A DNA stretch of 64,000 bases, taken from IMG/VR virus record IMGVR_UViG_2061766007_001954; one strand, 5' to 3'. The position numbers and the translations under genes are program-made. Shown here piece after piece: positions 187 through 50,276 of this stretch. Origin of the DNA: an uncultured virus (IMG/VR IMGVR_UViG_2061766007_001954) (Duplodnaviria > Heunggongvirae > Uroviricota > Caudoviricetes). Each line of letters starts with the position of its first letter. Position 1 is the first letter of the stretch. A model generated the notes under the pieces. The model saw only the letters and a list, made by a program, of their open reading frames with translations. It was not told the origin of the DNA and did not search any database.

Positions 187-196
187 NNNNNNNNNN

Positions 197-3594: not shown

Positions 3595-3754
3595 TCTTAT
3601 GGCCCATCGTAGCTCAGTTGGTAGAGCACGAATTGTGTGTCAGCTTCTGACACCTNNNNNNNNNNCTCCTTTCGTTTTCTACAGCATTCAAGGGAATTAA
3701 TCATCAGTGAACTGGTGGCTTTAGTCGATCTCTTGAATGCTGTTTTTCATTTTC

Positions 3755-3913: not shown

Positions 3914-5374
3914 ATGACAACATTCGCTCGCGCTCTCCGCAAGGAAAGCAGAAAGACCCACACTGAAAATGGTGCTACCGCATATAGCACCACCGGTTCC
4001 GCTGTTTTGGACCTCTTTGGTTGCATCGGCTCGCTCCGTGAACGCAATGATTCTGAGATCGAGCGTCTCTTTGCTGACGCCTATCGTCAGGATCCGCTGC
4101 TTACCACTCGCTGTGTGTTTTATGCCCGTGATATCCGAGGCGGACTCGGTGAGCGCAACACTTTCAGAGTTATCCTACGCTATGCCGCCAAGCATCATCA
4201 GGAAGCAGTCAAGCCGAACATCCCGCTGATCGGTCTCTATGGCCGCTATGACGATTTGTACTGCCTTGTCGGCACCCCGCTGGAGGCTGACATGTGGGAG
4301 TACATGGATGCCCAGTTCAAGCTGGATGAGTTCAATATGAAGCGCGGCAAGCCCTGCAGCCTACTCGCAAAGTGGATCAAGACCCCAGACGGCAGCGCCA
4401 AGCAGACCAGGAAGCTCGGCTGCATGACTGCGCTGCACCTGGATCGTTCGGTGTACATGTTCAAGCGGCGCCTGCGCGCACTCAGAAAGTATCTGCATAT
4501 CGTCGAAGCGCAGATGTCTGCAAACAAGTGGAACGAAATCGACTACAGCATCGTTCCTTCCCGCGCTGCCATGATCTACCGCAAAGCGTTCTTGCGCCAC
4601 GATGAAGCCCGCTACCAGGCCTATATCGGCAAGGTGGAAAAGGGTGAGGAAAATATCCATGCGGATACGCTCTATCCGTATGACCTGGTGCATCAGGCAT
4701 GGCGCAACAGGCGTGAAGACGCCACCGTGGAAGCACAATGGCGGGCGCTGCCGAACTATCTGACAGAGCCTGCCAATGCCATCGTTATCGCCGATACCAG
4801 CGGCTCGATGACCTGCAACGGCGGACGTCCGCTTGACAGCTCGGTTGGTCTGGCGATCTATTTCGCTGAACGCAATACCGGACCGTTCCACAATCTGTGG
4901 ATGAGCTTCTCGGGTGATAGCCGCATTCAGCATCTCCGTGGCGAAACGCTGCATCAGAAGGTCGAAAACATCGACTACAGTCACTGGGCAAACAACACGA
5001 ACCTGGAGCGTGCATTCATGCATGTTCTTCAGATCGCCCAGGAGAACAACGTCAGACAGGAGGACATGGTGAAGAGCCTGATTGTCATCTCCGATATGGA
5101 GATCGATCGCACGGCCGGCAGCTGGTCTTTCTATGATGAGATGCGCAACCGCTTCCAGCAGGCAGGCTATGAAATACCGAATGTCGTTTACTGGAACGTC
5201 AACTCCCGTAACGACATCTTCCATGCGGACAAGAACCGCAAGGGAGTGCAGCTCTGCAGCGGACAGTCTCCGGCGACGTTCAAGCAGTTGATGGCAAGCA
5301 TCGGTATGACACCCATGCAGATGATGCGTAAGGTGCTCAACGGCGAGCGCTATCAGCCTGTCACGCTCGGCTAA
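3914..5374 (+). CDS. DUF2828-family protein (Ro60/TROVE-like helical domain plus vWA)
   Basis: TENGATAYSTTGSAVLDLF, ARDIRGGLGER, LLAKW, TLYPYDLV, MIDAS DTSGSM, ISDME, VVYWNV; AAGGA RBS. Confidence 0.85.
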   Translation: MTTFARALRKESRKTHTENGATAYSTTGSAVLDLFGCIGSLRERNDSEIERLFADAYRQDPLLTTRCVFYARDIRGGLGERNTFRVILRYAAKHHQEAVKPNIPLIGLYGRYDDLYCLVGTPLEADMWEYMDAQFKLDEFNMKRGKPCSLLAKWIKTPDGSAKQTRKLGCMTALHLDRSVYMFKRRLRALRKYLHIVEAQMSANKWNEIDYSIVPSRAAMIYRKAFLRHDEARYQAYIGKVEKGEENIHADTLYPYDLVHQAWRNRREDATVEAQWRALPNYLTEPANAIVIADTSGSMTCNGGRPLDSSVGLAIYFAERNTGPFHNLWMSFSGDSRIQHLRGETLHQKVENIDYSHWANNTNLERAFMHVLQIAQENNVRQEDMVKSLIVISDMEIDRTAGSWSFYDEMRNRFQQAGYEIPNVVYWNVNSRNDIFHADKNRKGVQLCSGQSPATFKQLMASIGMTPMQMMRKVLNGERYQPVTLG

Positions 5375-5384
5375 CATTTAACAT

Positions 5385-9863: not shown

Positions 9864-12800
9864 TTAGAAATAGTCATCCTCTGGTAATAACACACCAGGT
9901 GCACAATTTCCGCTTATGGCATCCTGGAAGCGTTCAAAGTCACCACGAGGTCCGTATACAGGATCTAACTCATCTTCCTCAAAGAGGTCAGCAACACGTG
10001 TTGTATCATACTGTCTACCTACAGGCAGATAAGCACCCATATGGTCCTGCAACTGACAGCAGGCAAAGTTAATAGCATGTGCAGTATCATCAGGTCGACC
10101 AGCTGCTCGACTAATTAAGATGATAGGATCTCTGCCACGTATCTCACGAGGATCTTCAATGAGTGCAAGGAAATCTCGAATAGGATGACTTTCATCATCG
10201 TGATTAAATCTAGGCAATCTGATTCGTTTAGATTTGATGCCGGCAATGCACATAGCAAGAGAGCGACTCTTATCTGTCACATAGTAGGTCATGTCCTTCT
10301 CGCGTTGCGCTTTAGAAAGACGCATTATATCACCACCGCTAGGTGGACCGTACTGTTGTGGACAAACAGTGACATTCGGAATATCGAGCAAGCCCTCATG
10401 CTTCATGATTTCTGTTCTAACAAAGCCAGCCCCACCATTATCAAAGGCAAAAGCGTTGGCACCAGCACCCATAATCCAATTCATAAGTATACGAGCTTCA
10501 TCAGTAGGAGAAACTCCTTTAGGGATGCGCTCAACATAAAGAACATCTATTGTCTGGTTATCCTTACGAAGCCCGATTATAGCAAATGCTGTGTAGGAAT
10601 CACTGATAGCAGAGCCCCCACCCCAGTCACACCCCACAGTGATGTAAGAATAGTGGTCCTTAACTCGCTGGATATCCTGTGGCGTTTTGATAGTGACAAT
10701 ATTGCCATAAGCATCAATGGGATCAAACTCTGCTGCAGCAAGATCTGCAAGAGTTAGTGGCTTTGTAGAGTCGTCATAAGGCCAGCCAAACAGCTCATTC
10801 CACGCGGTAGCTGTTGGGTATGTATCTATCTTTCTGAGTAGACGGGCCCACTTGTTTTCATGAGCAGCGTGGATTCGGTGGCACGGCTGTGCTAAATGCA
10901 TGCCAGGGAAAGTGAGGGCTCTATCTGGGTAAGCATGAACCCATCCACCATCTTCTACATAAACGGATCGACCGCATTTAGCGCATACAGGACCGCGTTT
11001 ACCAATCATTTTCAGAAGGTCTTGTTCAGGATTGGGTATGTTGAAATAGCCACAATGAGAACAATGTATAATCCATTCTGCCTGACTGGATGTACTCCAA
11101 AGTCTGCTTAAAGTATTGTCTGTAGTCTTAGGTGTGCCTGTATAAATACTAAAGCCCCAGTTAAGAGATGCGGACATACATTCTTCAATAATAGGAATAA
11201 ATTCCCAGTTGAGATCCTGACAATTCTTTGACAGAATCCCACTGGCTAGAACATAGGCGTGTGTGCCCTCTACTTCAATATCATAGCCTGGCAACACACC
11301 TGCATATTCAATATTTATGATTGGATCGAGGAAGAAATCTCCGACCCATTCTGCATCTGCTGGTACAACTCCCAAGCAGTCGGATCCGCCTTGATCTCTT
11401 CCAGATGATATTCCGGATGCTCCGCAGCATATTGCTCGATTAGCTTCTGCTGTGCTTCTGGATCGTCCTTCAGAGCAAGAAGAGGTCCCCTGCGATGTTT
11501 CCAAGCATACCGTTTGGCAGCTTCTGCAGGATCGTTGATAATCTTCAATGCTCTGCGCTTGCGCTGATACGCTAGTTCCCGTGCTTTCACTTCCGGGCGC
11601 TGTCTGTTTTTTCTCTCCAGTTCTAGCATATGCGCATGACGTTCTGGATCCGCTGCTTTTCGTTTGTAGTAAGCATTGCGTTCTGCCTTCAACTTTGCTT
11701 CGTATTCCGGATCGCCCTTCATGCGCTTCCTGTACGCCCTGCGGACCTCGTTGATATGCTCTCTGTTTGCTTGTTGCCAAGCAGCCATTTGAGCAGCACG
11801 ATGTTCCTTCTGTTCCTGGGTCATATTCTCTCTGTACTCCCTGCCACGCTTCCGAAGCTCTTCCCGATGCTCCTCCCGATATGCAGCTCCACGTGCAAGC
11901 ATCTCCTCCAGATGCTCTTCTCGATATTTCAGGTACCACTCGTGCTTGTGTTCCGACTGATAAATCTCCCTGCACTCCCGAGAGCAAAATCCCGACTGAT
12001 TGTGAACGGTGAATTCTTTTCCACAATGCTGACAGATCCTCGTTTTCACTTTGATTTTGTATTCCATGCATTCTGGAACAAACGGTGAGATTAGATTCAT
12101 CAAGGCAAGAAACGCATCCCGGTTCAGACGAATAACATATCCTATATTTCTCGTAGAACTGTGTTTCACCATCATTGGTTTCGCATCCACCCCCCAACGT
12201 GCCCGAAGCCAGAGACAGAGTAGATTGACCTCTTCCTCGCTGAACCCGTTGGTGGATATGCTCCCGCAGTTGTTGTTCTTGTCCCGGCTCCCGTCGTCCA
12301 TGAACCACCAGGCTAGAGCAATCGGATGTGTAATCTCGTTCAAATATTCCACAGTGACTGTTTTTCTCTCTGAGCCCTGTGGACGGAGAAGGGTGTACAT
12401 AGAGTAAAAGATCGGAAGAGCTTTCAAAGTCAATACAATCCAGAAGTCCCCGTAACCTGGATTCTCTGTCACGAACGGAGGACGCGTAGCGAATTCTTGT
12501 AAGACTTCGTACTTGTGAATCACGTAATCCTCTTGCACCTGTCCATGATTCCAACGTATAGCCTGTGTCTTCTCGCCGCTCTTTCTGAGAGATGCATCCC
12601 CCAATAGGCTGCCCATGATTGCATTGACTTGTTCCTCGGTCATCCCGATTTCCGACGCTTGTTCTACTATAGACATATTCAATAATGTCTCCTATGCGCA
12701 TCGGGCCATGGTTAGTAGGCAAAACGTGATCTGCCGTACAAGTCAGTGAGCGACCTGTTTTGGTGGTAACAGTGAAATAGTTTCTGTAGCCGTGGAACGA

Positions 12801-13454
12801 TGCGTCTTTTGTCACCACGCTTACAGTAGCATTCCCGTCAAAGAAATTACACGATAGTACAAAATCACCAGCCCTCACAGCCTTTATAGGTATGCATTTA
12901 GGAGTTCCTAACTTCCTATCAATAATGTAAATAGGTGTATTTTCCCAGTTAGTCTCGTCACATATACATGCAGAGGCCCCTGAAATCCCGCGCAAGCGAT
13001 CTGCCGATACGAAGGCATGCTCCATGAAAGTCATCGAATTATTTCTGAAAACCTTCAGGGTCATCTTGCTCAACTCTAATGGAGAAATGAAATTGTTGAT
13101 AATGGGACAACTACGCAGAATCGGTTGATAGATCGTGTTGTTCAGGCGTTTGATCATCTCGAATTGTGGCTGGACAATCACGGTGTGATAATTTGGTATA
13201 AACATGCTGCGTAAGCCTGATGCACTACATATGCCAACGCTCTTCCCGTTTTGGCGACTAAGCATCAGAAGCATTTGCTGAGGCTGCACAACATTATATA
13301 AAGGAGCTAGCTGAAAGTGGTTTTCCAGCCCCATTCGTTTCCCGTTTAATTCAAACAAAGAAAGGAGCGGAATCAGAGTCTTTAATTCCCCTGATTTGAT
13401 CCGTCTGTAAAATTCTTCAAATTGTCGTTTTAAGTTCGGTGGCAAAGTAATCAT
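9864..13454 (-). CDS. terminase large subunit (lambda gpA-like) with intein
   Basis: Walker A-like SRQNGKS, Walker B CICDE|CQD split by the intein, YTGTPKT, CSHC/CAKC Zn motifs, VGCDWG nuclease motif, PDDTAHA. Confidence 0.88.
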   Translation of the reverse strand: MITLPPNLKRQFEEFYRRIKSGELKTLIPLLSLFELNGKRMGLENHFQLAPLYNVVQPQQMLLMLSRQNGKSVGICSASGLRSMFIPNYHTVIVQPQFEMIKRLNNTIYQPILRSCPIINNFISPLELSKMTLKVFRNNSMTFMEHAFVSADRLRGISGASACICDETNWENTPIYIIDRKLGTPKCIPIKAVRAGDFVLSCNFFDGNATVSVVTKDASFHGYRNYFTVTTKTGRSLTCTADHVLPTNHGPMRIGDIIEYVYSRTSVGNRDDRGTSQCNHGQPIGGCISQKERREDTGYTLESWTGARGLRDSQVRSLTRIRYASSVRDRESRLRGLLDCIDFESSSDLLLYVHPSPSTGLREKNSHCGIFERDYTSDCSSLVVHGRREPGQEQQLREHIHQRVQRGRGQSTLSLASGTLGGGCETNDGETQFYEKYRICYSSEPGCVSCLDESNLTVCSRMHGIQNQSENEDLSALWKRIHRSQSVGILLSGVQGDLSVGTQARVVPEISRRASGGDACTWSCISGGASGRASEAWQGVQREYDPGTEGTSCCSNGCLATSKQRAYQRGPQGVQEAHEGRSGIRSKVEGRTQCLLQTKSSGSRTSCAYARTGEKKQTAPGSESTGTSVSAQAQSIEDYQRSCRSCQTVCLETSQGTSSCSEGRSRSTAEANRAICCGASGISSGRDQGGSDCLGVVPADAEWVGDFFLDPIINIEYAGVLPGYDIEVEGTHAYVLASGILSKNCQDLNWEFIPIIEECMSASLNWGFSIYTGTPKTTDNTLSRLWSTSSQAEWIIHCSHCGYFNIPNPEQDLLKMIGKRGPVCAKCGRSVYVEDGGWVHAYPDRALTFPGMHLAQPCHRIHAAHENKWARLLRKIDTYPTATAWNELFGWPYDDSTKPLTLADLAAAEFDPIDAYGNIVTIKTPQDIQRVKDHYSYITVGCDWGGGSAISDSYTAFAIIGLRKDNQTIDVLYVERIPKGVSPTDEARILMNWIMGAGANAFAFDNGGAGFVRTEIMKHEGLLDIPNVTVCPQQYGPPSGGDIMRLSKAQREKDMTYYVTDKSRSLAMCIAGIKSKRIRLPRFNHDDESHPIRDFLALIEDPREIRGRDPIILISRAAGRPDDTAHAINFACCQLQDHMGAYLPVGRQYDTTRVADLFEEDELDPVYGPRGDFERFQDAISGNCAPGVLLPEDDYF
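11223..12953 (-). mobile_element. intein (577 aa) in terminase at the Walker B motif
   Basis: Block A TNWENTPI, block B LTCTADH, block F GYDIEVEGTHAY, block G ILSKN followed by Cys+1. Confidence 0.85.
11315..12682 (-). CDS. LAGLIDADG homing endonuclease with Zn finger and charged helical tail, nested out of frame in the intein
   Basis: GSLLGDASL and LAWWFMDDGS motifs, CQHC..FCSREC; own AGGAGA RBS at 12688-12693. Confidence 0.88.
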   Translation of the reverse strand: MNMSIVEQASEIGMTEEQVNAIMGSLLGDASLRKSGEKTQAIRWNHGQVQEDYVIHKYEVLQEFATRPPFVTENPGYGDFWIVLTLKALPIFYSMYTLLRPQGSERKTVTVEYLNEITHPIALAWWFMDDGSRDKNNNCGSISTNGFSEEEVNLLCLWLRARWGVDAKPMMVKHSSTRNIGYVIRLNRDAFLALMNLISPFVPECMEYKIKVKTRICQHCGKEFTVHNQSGFCSRECREIYQSEHKHEWYLKYREEHLEEMLARGAAYREEHREELRKRGREYRENMTQEQKEHRAAQMAAWQQANREHINEVRRAYRKRMKGDPEYEAKLKAERNAYYKRKAADPERHAHMLELERKNRQRPEVKARELAYQRKRRALKIINDPAEAAKRYAWKHRRGPLLALKDDPEAQQKLIEQYAAEHPEYHLEEIKADPTAWELYQQMQNGSEISSSIQS

Positions 13455-13687
13455 TGAATAAGCTGTCCTCGCATTTAACGTTTTCCTTACAGTAACATGT
13501 AACCAGGAGGCGTCCAATGCTTGTACAAGCTGCTAAATATCTTAGAGATAAATTGATCGTCCCCGCTAATCGGTATCTGAGAAAAGACGCGTTTGGAACA
13601 GAGCGAACGCAAGAGCGTCGACGCTCGGCGCGTACAGATGTTGTGCCGATTGACAAACGAACACCCTTTGGCAATACCTCTAAGTGA

Positions 13688-15480: not shown

Positions 15481-15897
15481 TCGCCAAGGCATTGAGTCAG
15501 ACAGCCTACTGCATCCTGCGTTCCGAGAATCCTAAAGATCGTAGGGATTGGAAAATGGAGCTTGTAGCTGTCAAGGTAGTCTGTCTGCGTGAGGATGGAT
15601 GCACGATAAGTGTGCTGGAAGGCCGCTGCAAAGGCAGGCAAGTGGAGACGGGGTATGATTGCCTGTTTGAGACACCGAAGGAGGCTTATTTGGCCTTCCG
15701 GCGTACTCTAAAAGGAATCTGGCTGAANNNNNNNNNNCGAGGATGGATGCACGATAAGCGTGCTGGAAGGCCGCTGCAAGGGCAGGCAAGTGGAGACGGG
15801 CTATGATTGCCTGTTTGAGACACCAAAGGAGGCTTATTTGGCCTTCCGGCGTACTCTAAAAGGAATCTGGCTGAAATATCAGAGGGAGCATAGATGA
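15477..15897 (+). CDS. hypothetical protein (~93 aa once the gap duplication is collapsed)
   Basis: ORF broken by the N gap and duplicated flank; its stop overlaps the coaD start (ATGA). Confidence 0.55.
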
Positions 15898-19461: not shown

Positions 19462-21696
19462 TTGTTACAAGACTGAAACTATCGAACATCTGTCAGTACG
19501 ATGAAATCGACATACCTATAGCCACTGGTTTGATGGCTGTCTGTGGCCGTAACGGCTCAGGTAAGTCAACGCTGTTGCGCGGGCTTATGTATGGCTTGAC
19601 GGGCCTTGTAGACGGTTCCTGGGGCACTCAGCAGAATCTACAAAAAGATGGTGTGGCTGTTCCTGGTTATGTTGTGGTGACTGTAAGAGATGATCGCACG
19701 GGCCATGAATATATTATCAAGCGTTATGCTACTTCAGGTGCCAAGTTTGCAGATTCCGTCACAGAGTATGCAGACGGTAACTATAAGGAAGTTGCAACTA
19801 GGCGCAAGACCGTTGATACTTATCTCGGCGATCTATATGGAATTTCTGTACAATTGTTGTTCCAGCTTGTTTGGGGTCGTCAGGGACAGCTGGATCTGTT
19901 GCTTACAGCACCGGCTGCTTATGTCAGCACGTTCCTTTCCAGTGTTTTCGATATGAAATACCTGGAGGTGTTGCGCGATAAGCTGAAGCTCTCTATTTCT
20001 AGTATTGCCGCCTATGATGATATGACCACAGGTATTGCAGCCGCTCAGAAAGAGAAAGAACATCTGAATGCCTGGATCGTAGAGCAGCAGCAAAAGGTTG
20101 ATGCTATAGAGCAGAAACTTATACCGCTCAGAGAACAGCATCAGCAGCTCCAGAAGCAGATGAATGCGTTGTCTACCGATGGGCTTCAGAGAACGGCAGC
20201 ACTTCAGGCAACAAAAGCAGCCCTCCTGGAGCAAGCCAAACCGCTAGATCTAATTATAGGCACTGAGGAATATGACAAGTATCGTGGCATGTCGTTGGAG
20301 ACCGTTGTGGGTGCTATTGACAACGCCAATGAGACAATCATACAGTGCCATGACACAGAAGGCGAAAAGCTTGCTTCGATTGACAGCGAACAGCAGGCAG
20401 TCAATAAGTGTAGATTGGAACTTAAAGATGTCGAAGGAAAACTTGTTAGTTTGACAGATATACTTAATACTGTTATGGACGCCAAGCAGAAGCTTTCCGA
20501 CAGCGTGTTCCACGAAGGCACCGATACCTGTATTTTGTGCGGGCATAGCGTCGATGATAAGACGGCTTATGTACAGCAAGTTCTGTGGCTTGTCGGCTAT
20601 GAGGATGTAGAGGCAACGGATATTTGGGACAAACCTTTCAATGATCGCATCATGGAAGTGCAGCAGCAGATCAACGAAGCAAAGCGTGATATTGCTGACA
20701 TCAACTATGCGATCAAAGAGGGCGAAAAGGGCATAGGACTTTTGCAGAAGAAAGTAGAGTTGCTTCGGAAGACCACCAAGGAAGCAGACGGGGAGTTGGT
20801 TCAACTTAATACGCTGAAGCAGTGGCTGCAGTTGAATTCTAAACTCGTCAAAGTAGACCAAGCCCTGGAAGCCGCAGACAATAACGAAGCATATGGTGCA
20901 ATCAAGAATGCCTTTGAGGGCGTCTGCAACGATATACAGACAGGGGAGGACTATAAACGCGTCCTAGACAGCGAGATCATCAAAGCAAGGGCTCAAATCG
21001 CATCTAAAGACGATTATATCACAAAGCTGCAGATCATACACGAACAGGCGGAGGTTAACAATTCTGCAAGGGGCATGCTAACGCTGCTCAGGGATGTGTT
21101 CTCGCAGCAGAGGGCACAGGCACGCTATCTGGCTAGCAAGGCTGACGAGCTGAATGCAAGGCTGGCATCTTTTCTGGAACTGACAGGTATGCCTTTCAAT
21201 TTGTATCTTGATAAGGATCAGAGGGTGTTCAAATACACTAGTGAGGGTGGTNNNNNNNNNNCGGGCACAGGCACGATACCTGGCTAGCAAGGCTGACGAG
21301 TTGAATGCAAGATTAGCATCTTTCCTGGAAATGACAGGTATGCCTTTCAATCTGTATCTTGATAAGGATCAGAGGGTGTTCAAATACACTAGTGAGGGTG
21401 GTTTTGAGCATCCGACTGCGCACCTGTCAGGAGCCCAGAAGAACATCAGTGCAGTTGCACTGCAGATGGCGCTTGTAGAAGTAATCAGTCCGAACATCAA
21501 TCTGTTCCTGTTTGATGAGCCTAGCGAGAGTCTGGATGCTGAGAATAAGATTGTGATGAGCGAGCTGTTTAAGCGAATGAACCGTATGCTGCCGTCTATA
21601 GGCGGCACTATGCTTATTGTCAGCCGTGACGAACAGCTGATAGAGGCATGTGAGAACACGATCAATATCAACGCACGTGAGGAGATTACAAAATGA
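19455..21696 (+). CDS. SbcC/Rad50-like SMC ATPase, interrupted by a scaffold gap/duplication
   Basis: GRNGSGKS, coiled coil with CILC zinc hook, LSGAQ signature, LFDEP. Confidence 0.9.
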
Positions 21697-21968: not shown

Positions 21969-24790
21969 TCCTGCTATCACGGTGCATAACTGGCCACGGG
22001 AGATGGATAAGCTTGGACAGTACACGCTCAAGCTGCGCAAGACGCCTGAAGAGTTGAAGGCAGAACGTGAACATCTTAAGCAGACATTTGGTGGAAAAGC
22101 GAAGAAAGTGAATCCGCTGAAGTTTGAAAATGGTACTGTGATTGAGCATGATTCGGCTGATCCTAGCACGGTATATTTTCTGCCGGGTTTGTGGCCTCGC
22201 GTTAAAGGATATCTGGAAGCAAACGGTATCGAGTATAAGATTACTGCTGACTATAGAAATCCAGAGATACGACCATCAATCGATTTTGAGGCAATAAAGG
22301 ATGTGCAGTTCCGTGAAACGCAGGACCTCGCACTAGCATTAATAGCGACGAGTGATTGCGGAATTATAGCAACCACGACATCCTACGGTAAGAGCTTTTT
22401 GGTAGGTGTTGTGTGTAAAGCTTTTCCGACATTGCGTATATTAGTCTGCACAAGCTCCACCATGGTAGTAACAACCTTGTATGAGTATCTGTGTAAGCAG
22501 GTTCCAGGTGAGGTTGGGATTCTATATGGTGGTAAAGATACTTCACATGGTAAACGCATTGTGGTAAGCACCCTTAGAAGTATAGTGAAGATACCTAAGG
22601 ATGGGCCACAGCTGCTCATATGTGACGAGTGTTTGAGTCGACGTCTGGCACTCGTAAAAGAAAGTGAATTGCTGGAACGCTAAACTTGGTATAATATCAA
22701 GCATGCCAATCAGCAGCCGATCAAGGGATTACCTAAACCATAAGGCATGGTACCCGGAAAAGGTTCATCGATCATCCGTAAGGAGTAGGCAGTAGCGTGC
22801 CGAAGCGCTCTTGAGAAGGAAACGACTCAAATGATATGATCAGCTGTAGCAGAAATGTTACTTTACGCTACAGGATATATGTTGGATAGGCTCTGCAGGC
22901 TGACAAATGCGTGACTCTGACGCACTTCCAACCTATGTCCAACAGAGTGTTCAATTTAGAGGATTGACACATGACTGTCAAGAAGAAGTATTATTTCTTG
23001 TACATCACCACGAATTTGGTGAACGGTAAGTATTACAAAGGGCTCCATGCAACCGATGATCTGTTTGATGGGTATCTCGGTTCAGGAAAGGCATTTAGAA
23101 GGGCTCTTCACAAGTATGGCTCAGCCGCTTTTAAGCGTAGAATTGTTTTATTTTTGCCGGACTTTGAGTCGCTATTACAGGCTGAAGCTATGTATATAAC
23201 AAATGAGGATTTATTAAATCCGAATTGTTATAATCTGCGTGGAGGCGGTGGTGGACAGCCAGGACACGCAGTGATTCCTTATGAGCGTACAGAAGAGCAG
23301 CGAGAGGCAATATCCAGAAAAGCAAGGGCTAGATATAAAAAGAAGTTAGAAAGTGGCGCAAAGAAGTACGTGTATCAGCCGCGCCCTAGAAAGACACCAA
23401 TCCTGCATCCGAGCGTTTCAGAAAACCATAAAGGCGCCGGTAATCCGATGTACGGTAGAAAGGGATCTCAGAATCCAACAGCTAAAGCTGTATACTGTGT
23501 TGAATTAGATCGCGAGTTTGGGTCAGCTATGATGGCTGCTGAGGAGCTGCATTTAGCGTTTCAAAATATTTCTAAAGTGTGTCAAGGGAAGCGTAGAACC
23601 TGTGGCGGTTATCATTGGTGTTTCTTAGAGGATAAGGATAAGCTTATAGAGAAATATAAAGAGTTAACCACAAAAGATATTTACATGGGGAACAAAACGT
23701 TGGACACACCGGATACAGGGGATAATGCGGGATACTTAAAGCCGGTTATAAGAGTGGAAACTGAGGAGCGTTTCCCTAGCCTAACTGCGGCTGCAAAAGC
23801 AGTAGGATTAAAGAGCATAAAAGACTTGGCACTCCGTTGCAAAGAGAGTGCTTTTTATAAGGGTACACATTGGATGTTTCTTGAGGATTATGAGCGCATG
23901 ACGTCGGCGCAACTCAATCCGGAAGAGACATCATGCAATTCCCATTCTGCAGAAAGTTCGGATTAACAGCTTCTCCATGTCGTAATGATGGTAGTGGCCT
24001 TGTGATGGAGTCCTTGTTTGGACCTGTTATCATGACCATGACCTATGAAGAGGCGCAACAAGCAGGCATGGTTACTCCTATGAAGTATACCATGCTGCGC
24101 TGCAACTGGGTTCCTTCTATTTGTCACAAGGAGGGTGTTAGTGATGTTATCATGAAACGCTTCGCCTACTGGAGAAACGATGCCAGGAACAAGGTTATTG
24201 CGAACTTTGTTAATGCCTTTCATAAAGCGAATCCAGATGCACAGATTTTGATTGTTGTTGCGGTTATGGAACATGCGTTGGCACTTGCTCAATACTTACC
24301 GTGGTTCAAGGTAGCATATTATGGGGGTTCGGATTTGTCTGATTTGGAGAAGCGCTTTCCTAAGGAGCGTTATCCAAACTTAGATATATCTTCCTATAAG
24401 ATGACAGCCAAGCAACTTGAAATCATGCGCGCAGCATTCGCAAAAGGTACACTAAAATGGGTTATTTCAACTCTCGTTTTTCGTCAAGGGGTATCATTTA
24501 ATAATTTACGTATGTTAGTTAGAGCAGATGGAGCCACATCACAAATAATGGGGATCCAGATTCCTGGGCGCTTAGCCCGTCTTCACGAAGGAAAAGCTTT
24601 TGGCTATCTTGTCGATATTGATGATACAGGTTGTGCGTGGTCTAGACGCAGAGCCTTATGTAGAGAACAACTATATGAGGAGCAAAAATGGCAGAGAACT
24701 ACGCCAGAAGGAATTATACATGATCTCAGCACAACAATTGGAACACACTCTGAGGGCGCTGCTGGAGCAAGCAGTACCGAAGAACATTAA
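21946..24790 (+). CDS. SF2 (UvsW-like) DNA helicase, join(21946..22632,23897..24790)
   Basis: Motif I TSYGKS; splicing restores DEC|H; motif III GLTASP; motif VI QIPGRLAR. Confidence 0.88.
22633..23896 (+). mobile_element. group I intron in helicase
   Basis: P1 GAGTGT/GCACTC with U.G pair, AATTGCTGGAA, AATCAGCAG, P7 GATCA/TGATC, terminal G before CAT. Confidence 0.85.
22971..23966 (+). CDS. intron-encoded GIY-YIG homing endonuclease with NUMOD-type repeats
   Basis: FLYITTNLVNGKYYKG, YLGSG, YNL, GNPMYGRK, ISKVCQGKRRTCGGYHW. Confidence 0.88.
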   Translation: MTVKKKYYFLYITTNLVNGKYYKGLHATDDLFDGYLGSGKAFRRALHKYGSAAFKRRIVLFLPDFESLLQAEAMYITNEDLLNPNCYNLRGGGGGQPGHAVIPYERTEEQREAISRKARARYKKKLESGAKKYVYQPRPRKTPILHPSVSENHKGAGNPMYGRKGSQNPTAKAVYCVELDREFGSAMMAAEELHLAFQNISKVCQGKRRTCGGYHWCFLEDKDKLIEKYKELTTKDIYMGNKTLDTPDTGDNAGYLKPVIRVETEERFPSLTAAAKAVGLKSIKDLALRCKESAFYKGTHWMFLEDYERMTSAQLNPEETSCNSHSAESSD

Positions 24791-31646: not shown

Positions 31647-33069
31647 AGCGTACCAACAACCCACACGGAGAGCTGCTTCAAGCGGCCCATTTTTCTCATT
31701 TGTTAAGCCGGCTTACAAGAAGGGTTACGAAATCCCAGGAATGGCGTATCAGACCGGAGGTATCAAGTCTATCAGTCTTTGGACGACGCGGGAGCAAATC
31801 CTGCGAATTGTTCCTGGCTATGACAAGGTAACCGGACAGATCTATCCGCAGAACATCAACGTGAATGAGTTCTCTACGGATACCGGCTATGACGATTATC
31901 TGTCTGACACCTTCATTACGGCATCCGTTGTCAGCAACTTCGGCGCTCGTAATCAGACGTTCATCACCTCGTATGATCCTAAGTCTGAAGATGCGCAGCG
32001 CTATGGTGGTAATACGGTCATCGACCAGTTCGTCAAGAATGTCACTAACTCTGTGCTGAACGCAGAGAAGGGAAAGAAGACCAAGTTCGCAGTAACTGAT
32101 GATATGCGGCAGTGGTGTGCCAAGGATGGTCCTATCAAGTATCCTCGACGTGCTATTCTGATGCAGGCATTGGTGTTTAAGCGCAACGGCATGAACAACC
32201 AAGATGAAAACCGTCAGGATCTTCTTGACGGCGAGGGTAATCCGCTTCCTATTTACGGTGTCGTGTCTGTGGAAGGTAAGGCGACGCTGATCGAATTCAT
32301 GAAGGCACTTGTTGAGCCTATGAATCCCGGGCTTCCGCTGAATCCTGCAGCTAATAATCGTTACGGAAGTCTTGCGGAATTGGATTCTAACTGTCTTTAT
32401 CTCAACCCTGTGCAGGATCCGACTACCGGCGCACGTATGCTTCGGCCGTCTGTTCAGGGCCCCGGTAAGGGCTGGACGCCTACGCCGTTCCCGCTGACGG
32501 AAGAAGATGTGAAGGCTCTGTGGATCCCTTGGGATGATCTGCTGCAGTATCAGACTGCCCAGGAGCAGTGCCAGTTCCTTGCCCAGGAATTCGGTGCCGA
32601 TTCTGTAAATTATTTTATCGGCACTGATCCTATTTTCAACGGACTGGAAATGCCCGGTGAGATCAAGAATGCAGGTCTCGGACGCTATTCCCGTTTTGTC
32701 AGCAATCCTAATGCTGGCTTCGGCTCCGCTCCCAGTCGTCCGAATGCGGCGGTACCAGCCGCGCGTTCCTTCGGCATGCCTAAGCAGGCTGCGGTCGGGA
32801 TTGCCTCCCAGGGGTTCGCTCCTAAGGCAAATCCTGCAGAAGCTGCACTGTCCGAAGGCTACACGGCAGCACCTAAGCCGAAGCCCGCTCTTGCGGGACT
32901 TCGTGCCAACGCAGCCATCGATCAGGACAAGTTGAAAGCCGCTCTCAACGGGATTCATAAGGCCCAGCAACCTGCTGGTCAGGCGTCTCTCGCTCAGAAC
33001 CTTCTGAATGACGATGATCTGGAAGATTTCATGGATCCTAATCTTCCTGAAGACAGCGAGGCGTTCTGA
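31639..33069 (+). CDS. hypothetical protein, candidate ssDNA-binding protein
   Basis: Lies between Pol and RecA; Pro/Ala linker and acidic tail ending in Phe. Confidence 0.5.
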   Translation: MIKAYQQPTRRAASSGPFFSFVKPAYKKGYEIPGMAYQTGGIKSISLWTTREQILRIVPGYDKVTGQIYPQNINVNEFSTDTGYDDYLSDTFITASVVSNFGARNQTFITSYDPKSEDAQRYGGNTVIDQFVKNVTNSVLNAEKGKKTKFAVTDDMRQWCAKDGPIKYPRRAILMQALVFKRNGMNNQDENRQDLLDGEGNPLPIYGVVSVEGKATLIEFMKALVEPMNPGLPLNPAANNRYGSLAELDSNCLYLNPVQDPTTGARMLRPSVQGPGKGWTPTPFPLTEEDVKALWIPWDDLLQYQTAQEQCQFLAQEFGADSVNYFIGTDPIFNGLEMPGEIKNAGLGRYSRFVSNPNAGFGSAPSRPNAAVPAARSFGMPKQAAVGIASQGFAPKANPAEAALSEGYTAAPKPKPALAGLRANAAIDQDKLKAALNGIHKAQQPAGQASLAQNLLNDDDLEDFMDPNLPEDSEAF

Positions 33070-34355
33070 TGGGTGTTTCAGCAATCCATTCTATGATGGA
33101 GGCGCTGCGCAAGGATGACGGAGGAATTGTAACCTCCGTAAAAGAGCTGAAGGAGAACCAGTACGGTTTTCCTCTGGCTCATTATGCGCAGCAATATCTG
33201 TTTGGCAGCACGGGCCTTCGTATCAAGGTTTTCAATTCCATCAGTGGTATGCCACAGGCATGCAAGTCTCCGCTGCTGTTTGATCTTATGGGGCATGTTT
33301 GTGCCTCTCCAGAGCATGGCGGTCTTGGAGGACTTGGCTTCCTGTATGAACTCGAGGATAAAATCTCACCAACTCTGCTTGAAGGCGTCATGGCTAATTA
33401 TGGTGATGACGTCTATGAGCGGTTCAGCGTTGTGAAAGATCTCACTATCGATGGTGCATTTAAGCATATCTGTAAGAAGATCATTCCTATGTACCGAAAA
33501 CACATGGGAAGTTGCGAGACGCCTATCATTTTGGGACTGGACTCTATCGGAGGTGCTGCATCGTCTGATACCTTGTCCAAGCTGGAAAGCGATGGTGTTG
33601 CCGGTAAGGGGTTCTGGGAAAAAGCGCACTTTATGAAATATTTTTGCGAGAACGCTGGCGCCCTCATTGGTGATATTCCGATGGTGATCATCTGCATTAA
33701 CCAGGAAAAGGAAGCCGCCGCAGCTGCATATGGTCCGCCGCAGAAGACTATTACCGGTGGCAAGAGCCAGGTTTTCAAAGATGGGCACATGATCAGCTCG
33801 TCATATAAGGCTCTGGCTTCAGGTGACGGTAAGATTCTGACTCTTAGGACGACCAAGACTTCTTTCTGTGATGCCCGTAAGATTGAAGTTGCATTCCGAT
33901 GGAACAAGTATGGCACAGAGAAGGAAGGCTATGGTCATCACTTTGATTGGGCCCTAGCAACAGCAAAGTGTCTGGCAGATCCTGATAAAGGTGTAGGTGA
34001 GATTCGCGATATCTGTGACGTGAAAGTCAGTGACATGGGTCTTGTGACTTGTACTACATTCGGACTCAGAAGCGTGCCTGCTGAAGAGTTCGAGGCAGCG
34101 CTGTTTGATCCAGCCAATAGCAAGACACTGGATGCGCTGTATACCTATCAGAAGATTGAGCGAATCAAAGATCTGAGTGCGTATAAGGCATATCTTAAGA
34201 GTAAAAAGGATGGCACTTTTCATGCAGAGCCTGAACCCGAAGTAAAGGTAACCGTGACTCCGACCAAGAAGCGTGGAAGAAAGCCAGTACCAGTGAGTCT
34301 GCCTGAGGATGCGCCAGCAACAGATCTTATTGATGGACTTGCAGACGAGGCCTAA
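33069..34355 (+). CDS. RecA/UvsX-like recombinase
   Basis: SGMPQACKS P-loop variant, LDSIG, INQEKE, ITGGK. Confidence 0.8.
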   Translation: MGVSAIHSMMEALRKDDGGIVTSVKELKENQYGFPLAHYAQQYLFGSTGLRIKVFNSISGMPQACKSPLLFDLMGHVCASPEHGGLGGLGFLYELEDKISPTLLEGVMANYGDDVYERFSVVKDLTIDGAFKHICKKIIPMYRKHMGSCETPIILGLDSIGGAASSDTLSKLESDGVAGKGFWEKAHFMKYFCENAGALIGDIPMVIICINQEKEAAAAAYGPPQKTITGGKSQVFKDGHMISSSYKALASGDGKILTLRTTKTSFCDARKIEVAFRWNKYGTEKEGYGHHFDWALATAKCLADPDKGVGEIRDICDVKVSDMGLVTCTTFGLRSVPAEEFEAALFDPANSKTLDALYTYQKIERIKDLSAYKAYLKSKKDGTFHAEPEPEVKVTVTPTKKRGRKPVPVSLPEDAPATDLIDGLADEA

Positions 34356-38681: not shown

Positions 38682-39165
38682 CGGCTGCAGTCAGTCTGCG
38701 TTTGGTGATAGCATCACGCAGCATACCCGCACGACCGCATTTTGCGATGGTGAGCTTCTTGTTGCTGAATTGCAGCGAGAGGCTCCTGTCGTTTGCCTTG
38801 ATGAGCACATTCTGCATATTCTTGTTTACAAGCAGCAGCATTTTGCCGCTGATGCCGCAAGGATCCAGGATGCTCATGTTCTCGGTTGAGTAACACAGCT
38901 TCCATTTAGACGGATCCACGGCAATGATGACATGGTCAGCCGACTCCTTGTCGCCTTTCTTAGCTTCATGGAGAAAGACGAGACTGGTTTCTGTCACATT
39001 GTTCGTGGCCGTCGTTTCTGGAGAGAGTACCGGAACCATTTCGATCGTAGCTTTCTTGATCGACTCAGTAGCAGGGTCTGCAGTAATTATACTCTCGAAG
39101 TCGGAGACATAGATACCCTCTTCTATGCCAGAATCATTAATACTAAAGCAATTAAGGTATTCCAT
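38632..39165 (-). CDS. possible hypothetical protein (alternatively the retron ncRNA region)
   Basis: Only long frame between the exonuclease-like gene and the RT; on the opposite strand to the operon. Confidence 0.35.
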   Translation of the reverse strand: MEYLNCFSINDSGIEEGIYVSDFESIITADPATESIKKATIEMVPVLSPETTATNNVTETSLVFLHEAKKGDKESADHVIIAVDPSKWKLCYSTENMSILDPCGISGKMLLLVNKNMQNVLIKANDRSLSLQFSNKKLTIAKCGRAGMLRDAITKRRLTAAASMLPSLYRTASPTTD

Positions 39166-40171
39166 GTTAAACCTGTATGACTTGAATAAAGTTGACACGA
39201 CGTGGAGAGACGGACGAATCCCCAAGAAGACGCCGGGTGAATTTCGGGAGATTAAAATCCCGAACGATGATCTGAAGCGTGTACAGAAGGATGTCCTAGA
39301 GTATCTGTATGCGTTGATCAGAGCTGGTACCATTAAAGTATCCGCATGCGCACATGGGTTCATCCCAGGCAGGGGCTGTATGAGTTCCATCGTCAAGCAT
39401 AGCCGGGAACCGAGATGTATGATTACGTTGGATATGAAGGATTTCTTCAACAACTGCAAGCCCGAGTTCTCGGAGGCTCCTATGCTGGACGGCGGTGTAC
39501 CAAAGCCCTATGTCAGAGGCATCATGCGAGTATGTGTTTGCAATGGCATCCTGCCGCAAGGTGGTCCAGCAAGCCCGATGCTGACGAACATCGCGATGTT
39601 CAACGCCGACAACATGATCGCTGCTTATGCGAAAGAGCACGGATTCGTGTACACCCGTTATGCGGATGACATGTGTTTCACACTAGAAGACATAAGCCCT
39701 TCGACCGAACACATGCTACAGAAAGCACACGAGGCACACTCGAAGAATCCGTTCGTCTGGTTCATCATGGGTGTGGAGACAATTCTGAAGAACAGTATGG
39801 GACTGGAACTCAATCACAAGAAAGACCACATTGTGTTCTACAGATCCCCGCATGCCAGCATGAAAACGCTTGGTATCGTCATTCGTCAGGATGGTTTCGG
39901 CTATGATGCTCCCATGTTGTATCGCCGCAAAACACGCGCCGCTGTGTGCAACCTTTATCACAAAGTGTTCGATCAACAGGGCGGAAAAATTGAGTACGAT
40001 GACAAGAAAGAATGGGCGTGCATCGTTGGCCGCATCATGTACATGAACGCTGTCAGAGCCGAATCAGACGACGGCCATGATGGATTCGATCCGCTGATCC
40101 AGGAAAAGTTCTTCAAACCATTGGAGGTCCATTTTGGAGCAGCAGCAGAAGTACAACGAACTGCTGGCTAA
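39164..40171 (+). CDS. retron-type reverse transcriptase
   Basis: IPKK..FREI, AHGF..GR, SIVKH, LDMKDFF, LPQGGPASP, YTRYADD, TLG. Confidence 0.88.
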   Translation: MLNLYDLNKVDTTWRDGRIPKKTPGEFREIKIPNDDLKRVQKDVLEYLYALIRAGTIKVSACAHGFIPGRGCMSSIVKHSREPRCMITLDMKDFFNNCKPEFSEAPMLDGGVPKPYVRGIMRVCVCNGILPQGGPASPMLTNIAMFNADNMIAAYAKEHGFVYTRYADDMCFTLEDISPSTEHMLQKAHEAHSKNPFVWFIMGVETILKNSMGLELNHKKDHIVFYRSPHASMKTLGIVIRQDGFGYDAPMLYRRKTRAAVCNLYHKVFDQQGGKIEYDDKKEWACIVGRIMYMNAVRAESDDGHDGFDPLIQEKFFKPLEVHFGAAAEVQRTAG

Positions 40172-42092
40172 GGCGCTGGAAGCAGAGCGTGCGTATTACG
40201 AGTTCGACAATCCGATTATGTCGGATGCTGACTATGATGCAATCATACGAAGTCTGAAAGCGCTGGAAGACGCGGCCCCCGACATCAAGAGTCCCAACAG
40301 TCCAACAACCAGAGTAGGCGGCAAGCCTGTTAATACATTTGCAAAGATTCAGTTTCCTTATAGGATGCTGTCCCTAAAGAATGCGTTTACGGAAGACGAC
40401 ATCAACGACTATCTTGCTAAGACCAAAGAATATGCTGGCCTTGGCTGGTGTGTACAGCCGAAACTGGACGGGTTGACATTGGTGTTGTTCTATGAGCATG
40501 GTACTCTTGTGAAAGCAGCCACCCGAGGAAACGGTGATGTTGGCGAAGATGTCACACTGAATGCTATGGCAATAAAAACAATCCCCGTGACAGTACAGCA
40601 GGAACAGTTAATTGTCCGTGGGGAAGTTGTCATGCATAAGCAGGACTTCGAGGAGCTTAACGCTCACAGAGCTGACAGAGGATTGCCGCTCTATGCCAAT
40701 GCACGCAATGTCGCAGCTGGCTCCATACGTCAGAAGGACCCGTCAATAACAGCATCCAGGAATCTCGTATTCTATGCTTACGACGTGCCGGGCTATAATG
40801 CCGGTACAGAAAAGCAGATGCTGGCACTTCTTGAAAAGAACGGATTCACGGTTCCACAGACCAGCTTCGTTCCTATCAGCTTCCCGAATTACGATGATAT
40901 CGCAAACATCGAGATCCAGGAAGTCAAGAAACATGAAGTCGATATCCCATATGCAATCGACGGGGCTGTCATTAAAACAGATGACCGCCGGCAGAGAGCA
41001 TCACTGGGAGTAGGCACACATGATCCCAACTGGGCTATAGCGTTCAAATTCACACCTGTGGAAGCCGTTACCATGCTGAAAGGAGTCACATGGCAGATAG
41101 GCAGAAAAGGTACGCTTACACCTGTTGCAGTTCTTGATCCTGTTGATCTGTGTGGAACTACAGTGGAGCACGCAAGTCTGCATAACATCGACTATATACG
41201 GGAAATGGATCTTAAACTGGGTGATATGGTTGCCGTCTATAAGGCAGCTGAAATTATTCCGCAGCTGGATCATGTCGTTGAGTCGATGGGGGGTGCACCT
41301 GTTGTGTTTCCAAAGCTGTGTCCTGAATGCGGTGCAGAACTCGTGAGAGATGGTGCAGCGCTTCTGTGTGTCAATGAAGACTGTATGGCAAAGACGAAAG
41401 CAGAAATCTGCTATTTCGTCAGCCGGCAGTGCATGGACATCAGGGGCATTGCAATCGCCATGATAGAAAGACTGGTCGAGAAAGGCAAGCTACGGTCGCC
41501 TGCTGATCTGTATAAACTGACAAAGGAAGATCTTATGCTTCCTGGCATCAGCAAGGATCTGAAGGCTGACTCGGTACTGGCTGAAATCGAAAAGTCCAAA
41601 CAGAAACCCTTTGATCGTGTGTTGTGCGCAATCGGTATCGACTGCATCGGTACGACAGGTGCCACTACTGTGGCTAATCACTTCGGCTCCATGCTGGCAT
41701 TGCTTAAGGCATCCATTCCGGAGATAGCAGCTATCGAAGGATTCGCTGAAACAACCGCACGCGCTATCTTCACCAGCATTCACAGTCCACGCAAAGCAGA
41801 GCTTATCAACGAGCTTTCGTTGCAGGGGCTTTGTATGAAGCAGGAGAGGAAAGAGCTCTCCAGCGAAAAGCTGAAAAGTCTATCATTCTGCATTACAGGA
41901 ACTCTGTCACAAAGCAGAGATCAAATCAAGAAACTTATTGAGGACAATGGAGGCAAATTCGTAACATCGATTTCTTCCAGCACGTCCTATCTCGTAGCCG
42001 GGGATGGTGGAGGTTCAAAAAGATCCAAAGCAGAGAAACTCGGTATTACAATCATCAATGAACAACAACTCAAGGATCTCCTATGTCAATAG
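40134..42092 (+). CDS. ligA: NAD-dependent DNA ligase
   Basis: MSDADYD, PKLDG, TRGNG, VRGE, DGAVIK, CPEC, BRCT domain. Confidence 0.95.
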   Translation: MEQQQKYNELLAKALEAERAYYEFDNPIMSDADYDAIIRSLKALEDAAPDIKSPNSPTTRVGGKPVNTFAKIQFPYRMLSLKNAFTEDDINDYLAKTKEYAGLGWCVQPKLDGLTLVLFYEHGTLVKAATRGNGDVGEDVTLNAMAIKTIPVTVQQEQLIVRGEVVMHKQDFEELNAHRADRGLPLYANARNVAAGSIRQKDPSITASRNLVFYAYDVPGYNAGTEKQMLALLEKNGFTVPQTSFVPISFPNYDDIANIEIQEVKKHEVDIPYAIDGAVIKTDDRRQRASLGVGTHDPNWAIAFKFTPVEAVTMLKGVTWQIGRKGTLTPVAVLDPVDLCGTTVEHASLHNIDYIREMDLKLGDMVAVYKAAEIIPQLDHVVESMGGAPVVFPKLCPECGAELVRDGAALLCVNEDCMAKTKAEICYFVSRQCMDIRGIAIAMIERLVEKGKLRSPADLYKLTKEDLMLPGISKDLKADSVLAEIEKSKQKPFDRVLCAIGIDCIGTTGATTVANHFGSMLALLKASIPEIAAIEGFAETTARAIFTSIHSPRKAELINELSLQGLCMKQERKELSSEKLKSLSFCITGTLSQSRDQIKKLIEDNGGKFVTSISSSTSYLVAGDGGGSKRSKAEKLGITIINEQQLKDLLCQ

Positions 42093-43030
42093 GCGACATT
42101 GATAGCACACTGCCTGTCGGGCAGATGCATCTTGTCGAGCGTTCATCAGATCTTTTCCATCAGCACGGAGGTATAGCAACAGCTGTGCAGTTCGATTCGC
42201 TGGAGGAAATGTCCCTTGATAAATTTCTGACCGAAGTGGCTCCGACCATGAAAGACAGAAAGGATACCTTCATGGTGATCAAGGACACGACGCATGATCA
42301 GCTCGTCCGTATCCTGGGAGACAACGTTGCCATTTACCACGTGACTGGCATGCAGGATGTCTTCTATGATGCATTCGTGGAGCGGCTGGTCTCTGGTGAG
42401 AAGATCACGATTACACCAAATCTTCGCTATCCACTTATCCAGTGGAAAGTGGATGAAGACGGTTCCCGTGACATCACTGTCGAAATTCCTCCGCAGCTCT
42501 TCGAGATGGAAGTCAACGGAATCTCAAAAAGATTTCCGATCTACCATCCTTTGATGTGGATGCGTGTGAGGCTGACTCCTGCGAACGTTCCGACCATGAC
42601 CCGTATGGCAGCCCTAAGAGAGCATGTCGATGATCTTGACAATGCGCAGCTCGGCCACATGCCGTTCCCCAATGTGCATGATAGCGGTGATATCTGCTGG
42701 GGACACACTGCCTACCAGACTCCAAAAGGTGTAAAACTCACGGAATCGGTGGCAATTGAACTCACATACAGACGCTTCTTCAACTCACAGTTCAATTACG
42801 ACTTGCTGTCAAGTCGTGATATGAGCGAGATCGAACGCATCTATGATAAGATGCCGAAAATCAAGGAGTTTCATGATATGCTCACAAGTCGTCGTGGCGA
42901 CAGCGGAAGCAGCTATCGTCACATGATCCGACTTGCCCGTGTCTTTTCGGAGCTGGATGGTGTGCGACAGTTCAAGCCTTACAACAGCATGTCAGCGACC
43001 GACTTCCTGGCTCGGAGCAGCCGGCGATGA
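42083..43030 (+). CDS. prokaryotic E2-like ubiquitin-conjugating protein
   Basis: HMPFPNVHDSGDICWG, FFNSQFNYDL. Confidence 0.75.
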   Translation: MSIGDIDSTLPVGQMHLVERSSDLFHQHGGIATAVQFDSLEEMSLDKFLTEVAPTMKDRKDTFMVIKDTTHDQLVRILGDNVAIYHVTGMQDVFYDAFVERLVSGEKITITPNLRYPLIQWKVDEDGSRDITVEIPPQLFEMEVNGISKRFPIYHPLMWMRVRLTPANVPTMTRMAALREHVDDLDNAQLGHMPFPNVHDSGDICWGHTAYQTPKGVKLTESVAIELTYRRFFNSQFNYDLLSSRDMSEIERIYDKMPKIKEFHDMLTSRRGDSGSSYRHMIRLARVFSELDGVRQFKPYNSMSATDFLARSSRR

Positions 43031-49108: not shown

Positions 49109-49135
49109 GTCGCCCGGAAACCGGGCGACTTTTTT
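49109..49135 (+). terminator. intrinsic terminator
   Basis: GTCGCCCGG-AAA-CCGGGCGAC-TTTTTT. Confidence 0.85.
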
Positions 49136-49139
49136 AATC

Positions 49140-50267: not shown

Positions 50268-50276
50268 GGAGATACA

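Follow-up and report, generated by a model that had tools for sequence, protein, structure and literature searches.

We analysed a 64,000-nt stretch of DNA from an uncultured virus of the Caudoviricetes (IMG/VR record IMGVR_UViG_2061766007_001954; the whole stretch is referred to below as the window), in which terL, the gene for the large terminase subunit, carries an insertion of 577 codons that is open in the terminase frame. This insertion is very probably a non-canonical intein whose homing endonuclease (HEN) is out of frame, the latter being read separately from the same 1.37 kb. The double coding itself is real and maintained by selection: stops in the terminase (host) frame are absolutely avoided, and the HEN frame shows conservation at the protein level.

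Organization of the interrupted terminase gene

All features of the gene lie on the minus strand, and positions are those of the window. The terL precursor gene occupies 9864..13454. Its open reading frame (ORF) extends further upstream (9864..13517, 1217 amino acids (aa)), but translation likely starts at the ATG at 13454, because the N-terminus of the intein-less homologue P0076, MITLPPNLKRQF, aligns with residue 22 of the 1217-codon ORF. Intein-less homologues of 611–623 aa contain the GpA_ATPase domain (PF05876), and a tblastn search of GenBank phages matched annotated terminase large subunits at 27–28% identity (distant matches only). Megablast against GenBank phages returned no match for the gene, nor did a scan of IMG/VR with the whole ORF as the query, and the sole match of an IMG/VR scan with the C-extein (L018) was spurious, spanning 12 residues.

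The N-extein (12954..13454), delimited by alignments with relatives and with an intein-less allele, ends in a Walker-B-like ...CICDE, and the insertion point lies immediately 3′ of the Walker-B DE codons. The intein follows at 11223..12953, running from Thr1 to Asn577 in the terL frame; it is defined by the junctions (CICDE/TNWEN... and ...GILSKN/CQD), by profile matches of both ends and by the Hint fold. Junction alignments place the first residue of the C-extein, Cys+1, at 11220..11222, and the C-extein including the stop codon (9864..11222) is 62% identical to residues 173–623 of P0076, which reads ...ICIDES/QDVPYQ at the insertion site.

The HEN gene (11315..12682) has 455 codons if counted from a TTG at 12682, or 453 from an ATG at 12676, two codons past the TTG, and ends with TAA at 11317..11315. 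Its ORF is offset by 835 nt from the terL ORF, that is, it lies in the +1 frame. An initial annotation, made from the sequence alone, had claimed a terminase frame free of stops through 577 codons between exactly the boundaries given above, and a 455-aa LAGLIDADG ORF in the +1 frame of the same strand; both claims held, the second through a Pfam match and the ORF coordinates. The source gene caller had reported the HEN (453 aa, P0001) and a 503-aa C-terminal terL fragment (P0069) as separate proteins. P0069 is a product of gene calling and not one part of a true split gene.

Selection on both reading frames

A stop arises in the host frame when a HEN codon that ends with T precedes a codon that starts with AA, AG or GA. 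In the window HEN, T was found at 0 of 139 such junctions versus 105 of 316 elsewhere (Fisher 4.7e-20), and a T-ending synonym was available for 106 of the 139 residues that precede the risky codons. Synonymous permutation of the HEN (20,000 permutations) produced a mean of 31 host-frame stops with a minimum of 18, compared with the 0 observed. Chance opening of the frame is ruled out by the empty junctions and by this minimum. The third frame has 28 stops across the HEN span, and in 24 ordinary genes of the window the equivalent frame has 3.6–10.4 stops per 100 codons (median 6.4), with T before AA, AG or GA at 743 of 2933 junctions.

We collected 17 family loci (L001–L005, L007–L017 and L019; 18 DNA copies counting the window), of which 5 came from IMG/VR, 11 from metagenomes and 1 from a contig of 9.3 kb in the bin of an uncultured Clostridia metagenome-assembled genome. 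L007 is the same contig as L001 and L009 the same as L002, and the HEN span of L015 is identical to that of L005. The layout is shared in 17 of 17 loci, down to ~35% HEN identity: the host ORFs of the relatives are terminases with the insert at the identical site, and across the HEN span no stop occurs in the host frame (one base behind that of the HEN), against 14–34 in the third frame. The initial annotation had named terminase-frame stops in homologues as what would speak against it, and none was present in any of these loci. It had also proposed the junction test beforehand, and the depletion proved absolute: 0 of 1168 junctions pooled over 8 distinct loci, with 0 of 129–160 in each locus (p 5e-11 to 2e-19; 0 of 68, p 0.03, in the truncated L011). 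In the one match that is more distant, L006, an SNF2 helicase contains a LAGLIDADG_2 intein of the ordinary in-frame kind, with 56 and 112 stops in its other frames.

The two frames are kept in different ways. Between the window and L001 the HEN differs at 58, 39 and 166 first, second and third codon positions, respectively (17, 11 and 63 for L003 and L004; 28, 20 and 112 for L005 and L017), and amino acid identity is 83% in the HEN frame versus 59% in the host frame over the same columns. The third-position excess and the difference in identity indicate purifying selection on the HEN frame and a host frame that is merely kept open. Selection on both frames, which the initial annotation had claimed from their openness, is thus supported by the avoidance of stops together with the codon-position pattern of the HEN.

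An assembly or sequencing artefact, in which a HEN truly in frame was shifted by two compensating indel errors, has next to no probability. Metagenome assemblies can contain indels, and the only identical full-length contig may itself be the source of the window DNA. However, an unselected frame would be expected to contain about 31 stops where there are none, and the same frame offset and stop-free frame recur in all 17 related loci from different assemblies. We also checked contigs of four public runs (two of which, X6 and X7, cover the stretch only partially) and found no insertion or deletion in any of them; an indel that places the HEN in frame was another outcome that the initial annotation had named as contradicting it. 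An independent variant, on contigs from a goat-gut run that cover 11000–13300, carries 86 + 66 = 152 substitutions and no gap. The HEN frame, moreover, contains a stop three codons 5′ of the TTG.

The uninterrupted host frame also bears on the kind of element. A split intein or fractured gene is ruled out by the absence of host-frame stops in the window and in 17 of 17 loci, and an RNA intron was rejected since an intron needs no open host frame. With its frame free of stops, the intein is contiguous and putatively cis-splicing.

Splicing domains and the host-frame filler

Within the intein, the N-terminal splicing domain (residues 1–94; 12672..12953), with block B TCTADH, and the C-terminal splicing region with blocks F and G (11223..11324; ...YDIEVEGTHAYVLASGILSKN) were recognized by profile matches. 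A profile of the first 98 intein positions matched the gp41-1 intein (6qaz, E=8e-9) and the NpuDnaB intein (4o1r, E=6.6e-7), and one of the last 45 positions matched, at their C-termini, the NpuDnaB intein (E=1.8e-7) as well as the Spl DnaX mini-intein (E=4.1e-7). The host-frame model is beta-rich in the N-terminal domain, with a predicted local distance difference test score (pLDDT) of 54–82 for residues 1–94 and 56–68 for residues 544–563. When this model was searched against 48,161 chains (VIA-align), the best 26 matches were all inteins or Hint domains (Z 9.1–5.7); they include 4o1r (Z 9.1, rmsd 4.1, 119 aligned) and 6riz (Z 8.9) and cover model residues 1 to ~571. Judged from these sequence and model matches, the insert is an intein with a predicted Hint domain built from its two ends, and its splicing activity is putative.

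The positions expected to take part in splicing are conserved across the family. Block B has the T-x-x-H motif, with C72 and H76 invariant and T73 nearly invariant among 11 sequences, and the terminal Asn (N577) is invariant. The +1 residue is Cys at all 13 C-terminal junctions read (window and 12 loci), whereas the equivalent position varies in 81 intein-free homologues (V in 24, S in 23, C in 13, A in 10, T in 5 and others in 6); such fixation against free variation is what a requirement for splicing would leave behind. At residue 1 the window (codon at 12951–12953) and L001 have Thr, whereas L002, L005, L016, L017 and L019 have Ser and L003, L004, L010, L011, L012 and L014 have Cys. All three nucleophiles are therefore used within one intein family. 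The penultimate position is occupied by Lys in the window and L001, by Tyr in most relatives and by His in L008 and L010 only; the window thus has Lys in place of the penultimate His that is common, though not universal, in class 1 inteins. Inteins without a penultimate His are known. Of the three alternatives at residue 1, Thr is the uncommon one, and a literature search yielded nothing clear about natural Thr1 inteins.

The insert might instead remain unspliced and be tolerated as a surface loop of TerL, as has been proposed for the ShiLan insertion with its out-of-frame HNH gene in a phage methylase, a precedent for an out-of-frame nuclease insertion that does not splice (PMC11855218). Pfam, moreover, found no intein. 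We nevertheless regard this as exceedingly improbable: the insert sits immediately after the Walker-B DE, both of its ends match solved inteins and model as a Hint domain, and the C, S or T at residue 1, the T..H of block B, the terminal Asn and the +1 Cys are conserved in the manner described above.

Between the splicing domains of the predicted intein, the host frame encodes a stop-free filler (residues 95–543; 11325..12671) without conservation at the protein level. Its S/G/C/R-rich character, as originally described, is borne out by the composition (S 14.3, G 11.6, R 9.6 and C 5.3%). With pLDDT below 50 (~25) throughout, these ~450 residues are predicted to be disordered. In the HEN spans of 8 loci, T precedes GG (giving host-frame Trp) at 22 of 143 junctions versus 216 of 699 in ordinary genes, and AT or AC (host-frame Tyr) at 102 of 458 versus 456 of 1562, the background in both cases being ordinary genes of the window genome alone. 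Aromatic residues may be mildly avoided in the filler, which hints that it is kept soluble and flexible as a linker.

Predicted fold and probable separate translation of the endonuclease

The HEN matches LAGLIDADG_2 in Pfam (E=1.6e-25; 90.5 bits, where the cut-off is 25). The core with its two motifs (...LLGDASL and ...WFMDDGS) is encoded at 12116..12622 (Pfam residues 21–189), and among 53 sequences D127 and G129 are invariant, and G26, D27 and D128 nearly so. The 53 homologues, found at E <1e-70 with 35–85% identity, have been called as separate proteins of 359–534 aa, and the majority of the full-length ones share the start position. Profile searches with the HEN identified I-SceI (E=1.2e-17) and I-WcaI (E=1.2e-15). 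An AlphaFold2 model from the 53-sequence alignment has a mean pLDDT of 90.5, with the LAGLIDADG core forming residues 1–208; the predicted structure fits the monomeric double alpha-beta-beta-alpha-beta-beta-alpha fold, and Foldseek matched it to I-SceI (5a0m, E=3.8e-13, TMt 0.75) and I-WcaI (6x1j, E=2.2e-12).

The core is followed by a CxxC...CSxxC zinc-ribbon-like element (approximately 11972..12034; C215, C218 and C231 invariant, C235 nearly so), within which short strands are modelled at residues 212–223, and by a K/E/R-rich tail of helical repeats of ~220 aa (approximately 11321..11980; helices at residues 233–452, pLDDT 84–92) with conserved DPE-type repeats. The tail presumably provides extra DNA binding; nothing informative for it was found in Pfam, and a search of the ESM Atlas (best score 0.84) gave no lead.

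A Shine-Dalgarno-like AGGAGA (12688..12693), formed by the I-G-D codons of the intein, precedes the TTG by 5 nt and the ATG by 11 nt. In 14 of 14 loci inspected, an ATG lies 17–32 codons 5′ of the NAIMGS motif with a GGAG-like element 8–12 nt 5′ of it, even where the host frame reads S-E instead of G-D. At the other end, the HEN TAA shares bases with the I-I-N codons in DPIINIEY, the first C-terminal splicing strand. The initial annotation had described both a ribosome-binding site made from the intein IGD codons and a HEN stop at block F, and both are confirmed by these positions. The distance from the HEN stop to the intein end is 92–131 nt in eight loci compared; the HEN ORF thus exactly fills the space between the splicing domains.

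The HEN could also be made by ribosomal frameshifting, as a fusion of N-extein, N-intein and HEN without an internal start. Both frames are on one strand and one mRNA, and a low-level shift may occur. However, the HEN frame is closed three codons 5′ of the TTG in the window and is open only from the TTG in L001, leaving almost no room for a shift, and the open lead-in ranges between 0 and 38 codons across loci, whereas the ATG and the GGAG-like element are conserved. Frameshifting is for these reasons very unlikely, although no systematic search for slippery sites was made, and separate translation of the HEN from its own start is the reading that we follow below.

Intein-free alleles and movement of the cassette

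We found 83 homologues of 590–640 aa that lack the intein, some of them very close to intein-bearing alleles. The spliced extein sequence of L001 is 89% identical to intein-free P0076 over 623 aa, and that of L002 is 95% identical to intein-free P0166. The exteins and the cassette also differ in their nearest relatives. Window exteins are nearest to those of L010 (83% and 74% aa identity), whereas the window cassette is nearest to that of L001 (nucleotide identity 0.80–0.86, versus 0.57–0.65 for the exteins). Three groups stand at 100/100 in the extein tree (window and L010; L001, P0076 and P0079; L002 and P0166), and an approximately unbiased (AU) test rejects the grouping of the window with L001 there (p 5.1e-5). 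In the HEN tree, by contrast, the window groups with L001 at 100/100 and the AU test rejects the window with L010 (p 8e-8); long branches are present, and the clades for both AU tests were named after the pairwise identities were known. Taken together, the near-identical intein-free terminases and the conflict between cassette and extein trees point to horizontal movement of the cassette between terminase lineages.

Recombination may also have taken place inside the intein. L003 and L005 are 94–97% identical (nucleotides) in the exteins, 99% in the C-terminal intein part and 0.92–0.99 around the N-terminal part. The N-terminal part itself (3655–3924 of L003 and 661–930 of L005) is 73% identical, with Cys1 in the former and Ser1 in the latter. 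These alignments suggest mosaic recombination within the intein.

Alternatively, the HEN could be a relic in decay, or a gene that has been domesticated and no longer homes, with the cassette now inherited only vertically. The intein-free allele nearest to the window is only 63% identical, and L003, L004, L005, L014 and L017 appear to be related vertically. On the other hand, purifying selection on the HEN frame is strong, the catalytic acidic residues are conserved, and the confident fold of the HEN extends through its tail. The intein-free alleles at 89% and 95% identity to intein-bearing ones and the incongruent histories of cassette and exteins likewise do not fit with purely vertical descent. 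We consider this explanation unlikely, and a putatively functional HEN carried by a mobile cassette remains our reading.

Comparison with known systems

The layout has precedents. Among the closest is a cyanobacterial DnaX intein with a LAGLIDADG gene in the +2 ORF (Phillips, DeSimone & Gogarten, bioRxiv 10.64898/2026.09.14.751524), for which a disordered in-frame stretch, a Shine-Dalgarno motif, purifying selection on the HEN and an overlay on I-WcaI (6X1J) were described. The terL intein likewise has a same-strand LAGLIDADG gene over the stretch between the splicing domains, a predicted disordered in-frame reading, its own Shine-Dalgarno element and purifying selection; I-WcaI (6X1J) is a top match here too, and the Spl DnaX mini-intein matches its C-terminal region. 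We name the frame offset +1; for the DnaX intein it is named +2. The two differ in the host gene, which is here terL of uncultured rumen-type phages and there a bacterial dnaX, and in the HEN, which here adds a zinc ribbon and the ~220-aa helical tail.

Non-canonical inteins in which the HEN is in a frame separate from that of the splicing domain have also been described in actinobacteriophages, where many reside in the large terminase subunit (Gosselin, Arsenault & Gogarten, bioRxiv 10.1101/2025.01.02.630785). The types include anti-sense LAGLIDADG, anti-sense VSR-like and frame-3 endonuclease VII-like HENs, and their proposed origin is the invasion of a mini-intein by a free-standing HEN, with evidence of continued transfer. 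The intein analysed here shares with them the phage host, the terminase large subunit and a HEN in a frame other than that of the splicing domain, but a same-strand, out-of-frame LAGLIDADG gene in terL falls outside the four types in section 8 of that preprint. Both preprints cite Gorbalenya 1998, 'Non-canonical inteins', for the layout.

Fractured genes, in which a free-standing HEN lies between the halves of a split intein (Dassa et al. 2009, PMC2677866), resemble the present case in occurring in phage replication or packaging genes, terminase included, and in that Hint halves flank a HEN that is translated separately (here putatively); the split intein gp41-1, which belongs to that set, matches the N-terminal domain best by sequence. 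Unlike in fractured genes, the host frame here is unbroken, and the HENs described there are GIY-YIG or Vsr-like. Finally, the hidden out-of-frame HNH endonuclease in the phage methylase insertion of ShiLan (Arsenault et al. 2025, PMC11855218) is similar in that the nuclease ORF lies out of frame within an insertion open in the host frame; it differs in having, by the account in that report, no detectable splicing domain, whereas both Hint halves are recognizable here. The layout is thus already published, and the present case adds a member of a rare kind and no new principle.

Other features of the window

The window encodes a second intein, in the gene for NrdD, the anaerobic ribonucleotide reductase (53914–57504, plus strand). 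This one is conventional: Intein_splicing and LAGLIDADG_3 are both within the nrdD ORF, in agreement with the in-frame endonuclease first stated for it, and 22 and 29 stops occur in the remaining frames over 370 codons. A free-standing ORF at 22971–23966 (plus strand), with an I-HmuI NUMOD-like DNA-binding domain, is probably another homing-type nuclease gene.

An ORF with RVT_1 (39125–40171, plus strand; E=1.1e-21) lies just upstream of the gene for an NAD-dependent DNA ligase and could encode the reverse transcriptase of a diversity-generating retroelement, a retron or a group II intron. At 42083–45660 (plus strand), ORFs with Prok-E2_D (E2-like) and ThiF/E1-like domains close together look like a module for ubiquitin-like conjugation, here in a phage setting.

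Five antisense ORFs of 293–462 codons (4361–5377, 31696–33084, 49134–50393, 51072–51953 and 52182–53078, all on the minus strand) lie opposite plus-strand genes. We rejected them as further cases of overprinting: the antisense frames are open because TTA, CTA and TCA codons are rare in the sense genes (0.26–1.6 per 100), and they are thus a by-product of codon usage. Pfam gave no match for the three of the five that were scanned (4361–5377, 31696–33084 and 49134–50393).

Four runs of 10 N are present in the window (187–196, 3656–3665, 15728–15737 and 21252–21261). The matching public contig is just 21,591 nt long, and the window therefore looks like a scaffold or a longer assembly.

Discussion

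The results above lead us to the following scheme, in which splicing, the internal initiation of the HEN and its cleavage target are what we infer. The ribosome would read the terL frame straight across the insert, and intein residues 1–94 and 544–577 would assemble into the Hint domain. This domain would excise the intein together with its ~450-residue disordered filler and join ...CICDE to CQDLNWE..., restoring the ATPase; the order of splicing would be attack by Thr1 (Ser or Cys in relatives), then Cys+1 and then cyclization of Asn577. From the +1 frame of the same 1.37 kb, with its own Shine-Dalgarno element and start codon, an I-SceI-like HEN of the free-standing type would be translated. 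The HEN presumably cleaves intein-free terL alleles of co-infecting relatives, and repair would copy the whole cassette.

Several points weigh against this scheme. The spacing of 11 nt between AGGAGA and the ATG is long, and the better-spaced start is the TTG. The host-frame model has a mean pLDDT of just 34.4 and comes from an alignment of only 11 sequences, and a Pfam search with the 1217-aa ORF returned no intein model and only a sub-threshold match to GpA_ATPase. Thr1 and the penultimate Lys make the predicted splicing chemistry of this copy less standard than that of its Cys1 relatives. Contigs rather than raw reads made up the run data, and the one full-length identical contig, of 21,591 nt, is perhaps the source of the window DNA; a 404-nt contig from the RNA library of X7 (11497–11900) reveals neither strand nor frame. 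As to mobility, the closest intein-free allele found for the window extein is the one at 63% identity, and the choice of the AU-tested clades after the fact belongs here as well.

A further reading, to which we give some credence but well short of even, is that intein and HEN form a partnership that is actively homing and that the cassette represents an intermediate stage, with a mini-intein that a free-standing I-SceI-type HEN has invaded at one end and either an in-frame intein of the canonical kind or a fractured gene at the other; its filler would then be shaped by more than the avoidance of stops.

The terL cassette is a statistically unambiguous case in which 1.37 kb of one strand, inside an essential gene, is overprinted with two proteins. 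Since the mechanism itself has already been published, the gain is one of breadth: the family, with 53 HEN clusters and 18 DNA copies, is large and divergent enough for studying how overprinting is maintained, and it supports the view that inteins acquire endonucleases by capturing free-standing HEN genes. Gene callers fragment such terminases, as they did here into P0069 and P0001, and these inteins are consequently under-counted. The natural Cys1, Ser1 and Thr1 variants of a mini-intein that tolerates an unstructured insert of 450 residues may interest intein engineers. If the cassette is indeed an actively homing partnership, the HEN clusters together with the Cys, Ser and Thr alleles could allow the steps by which an intein and its endonuclease are assembled to be reconstructed.

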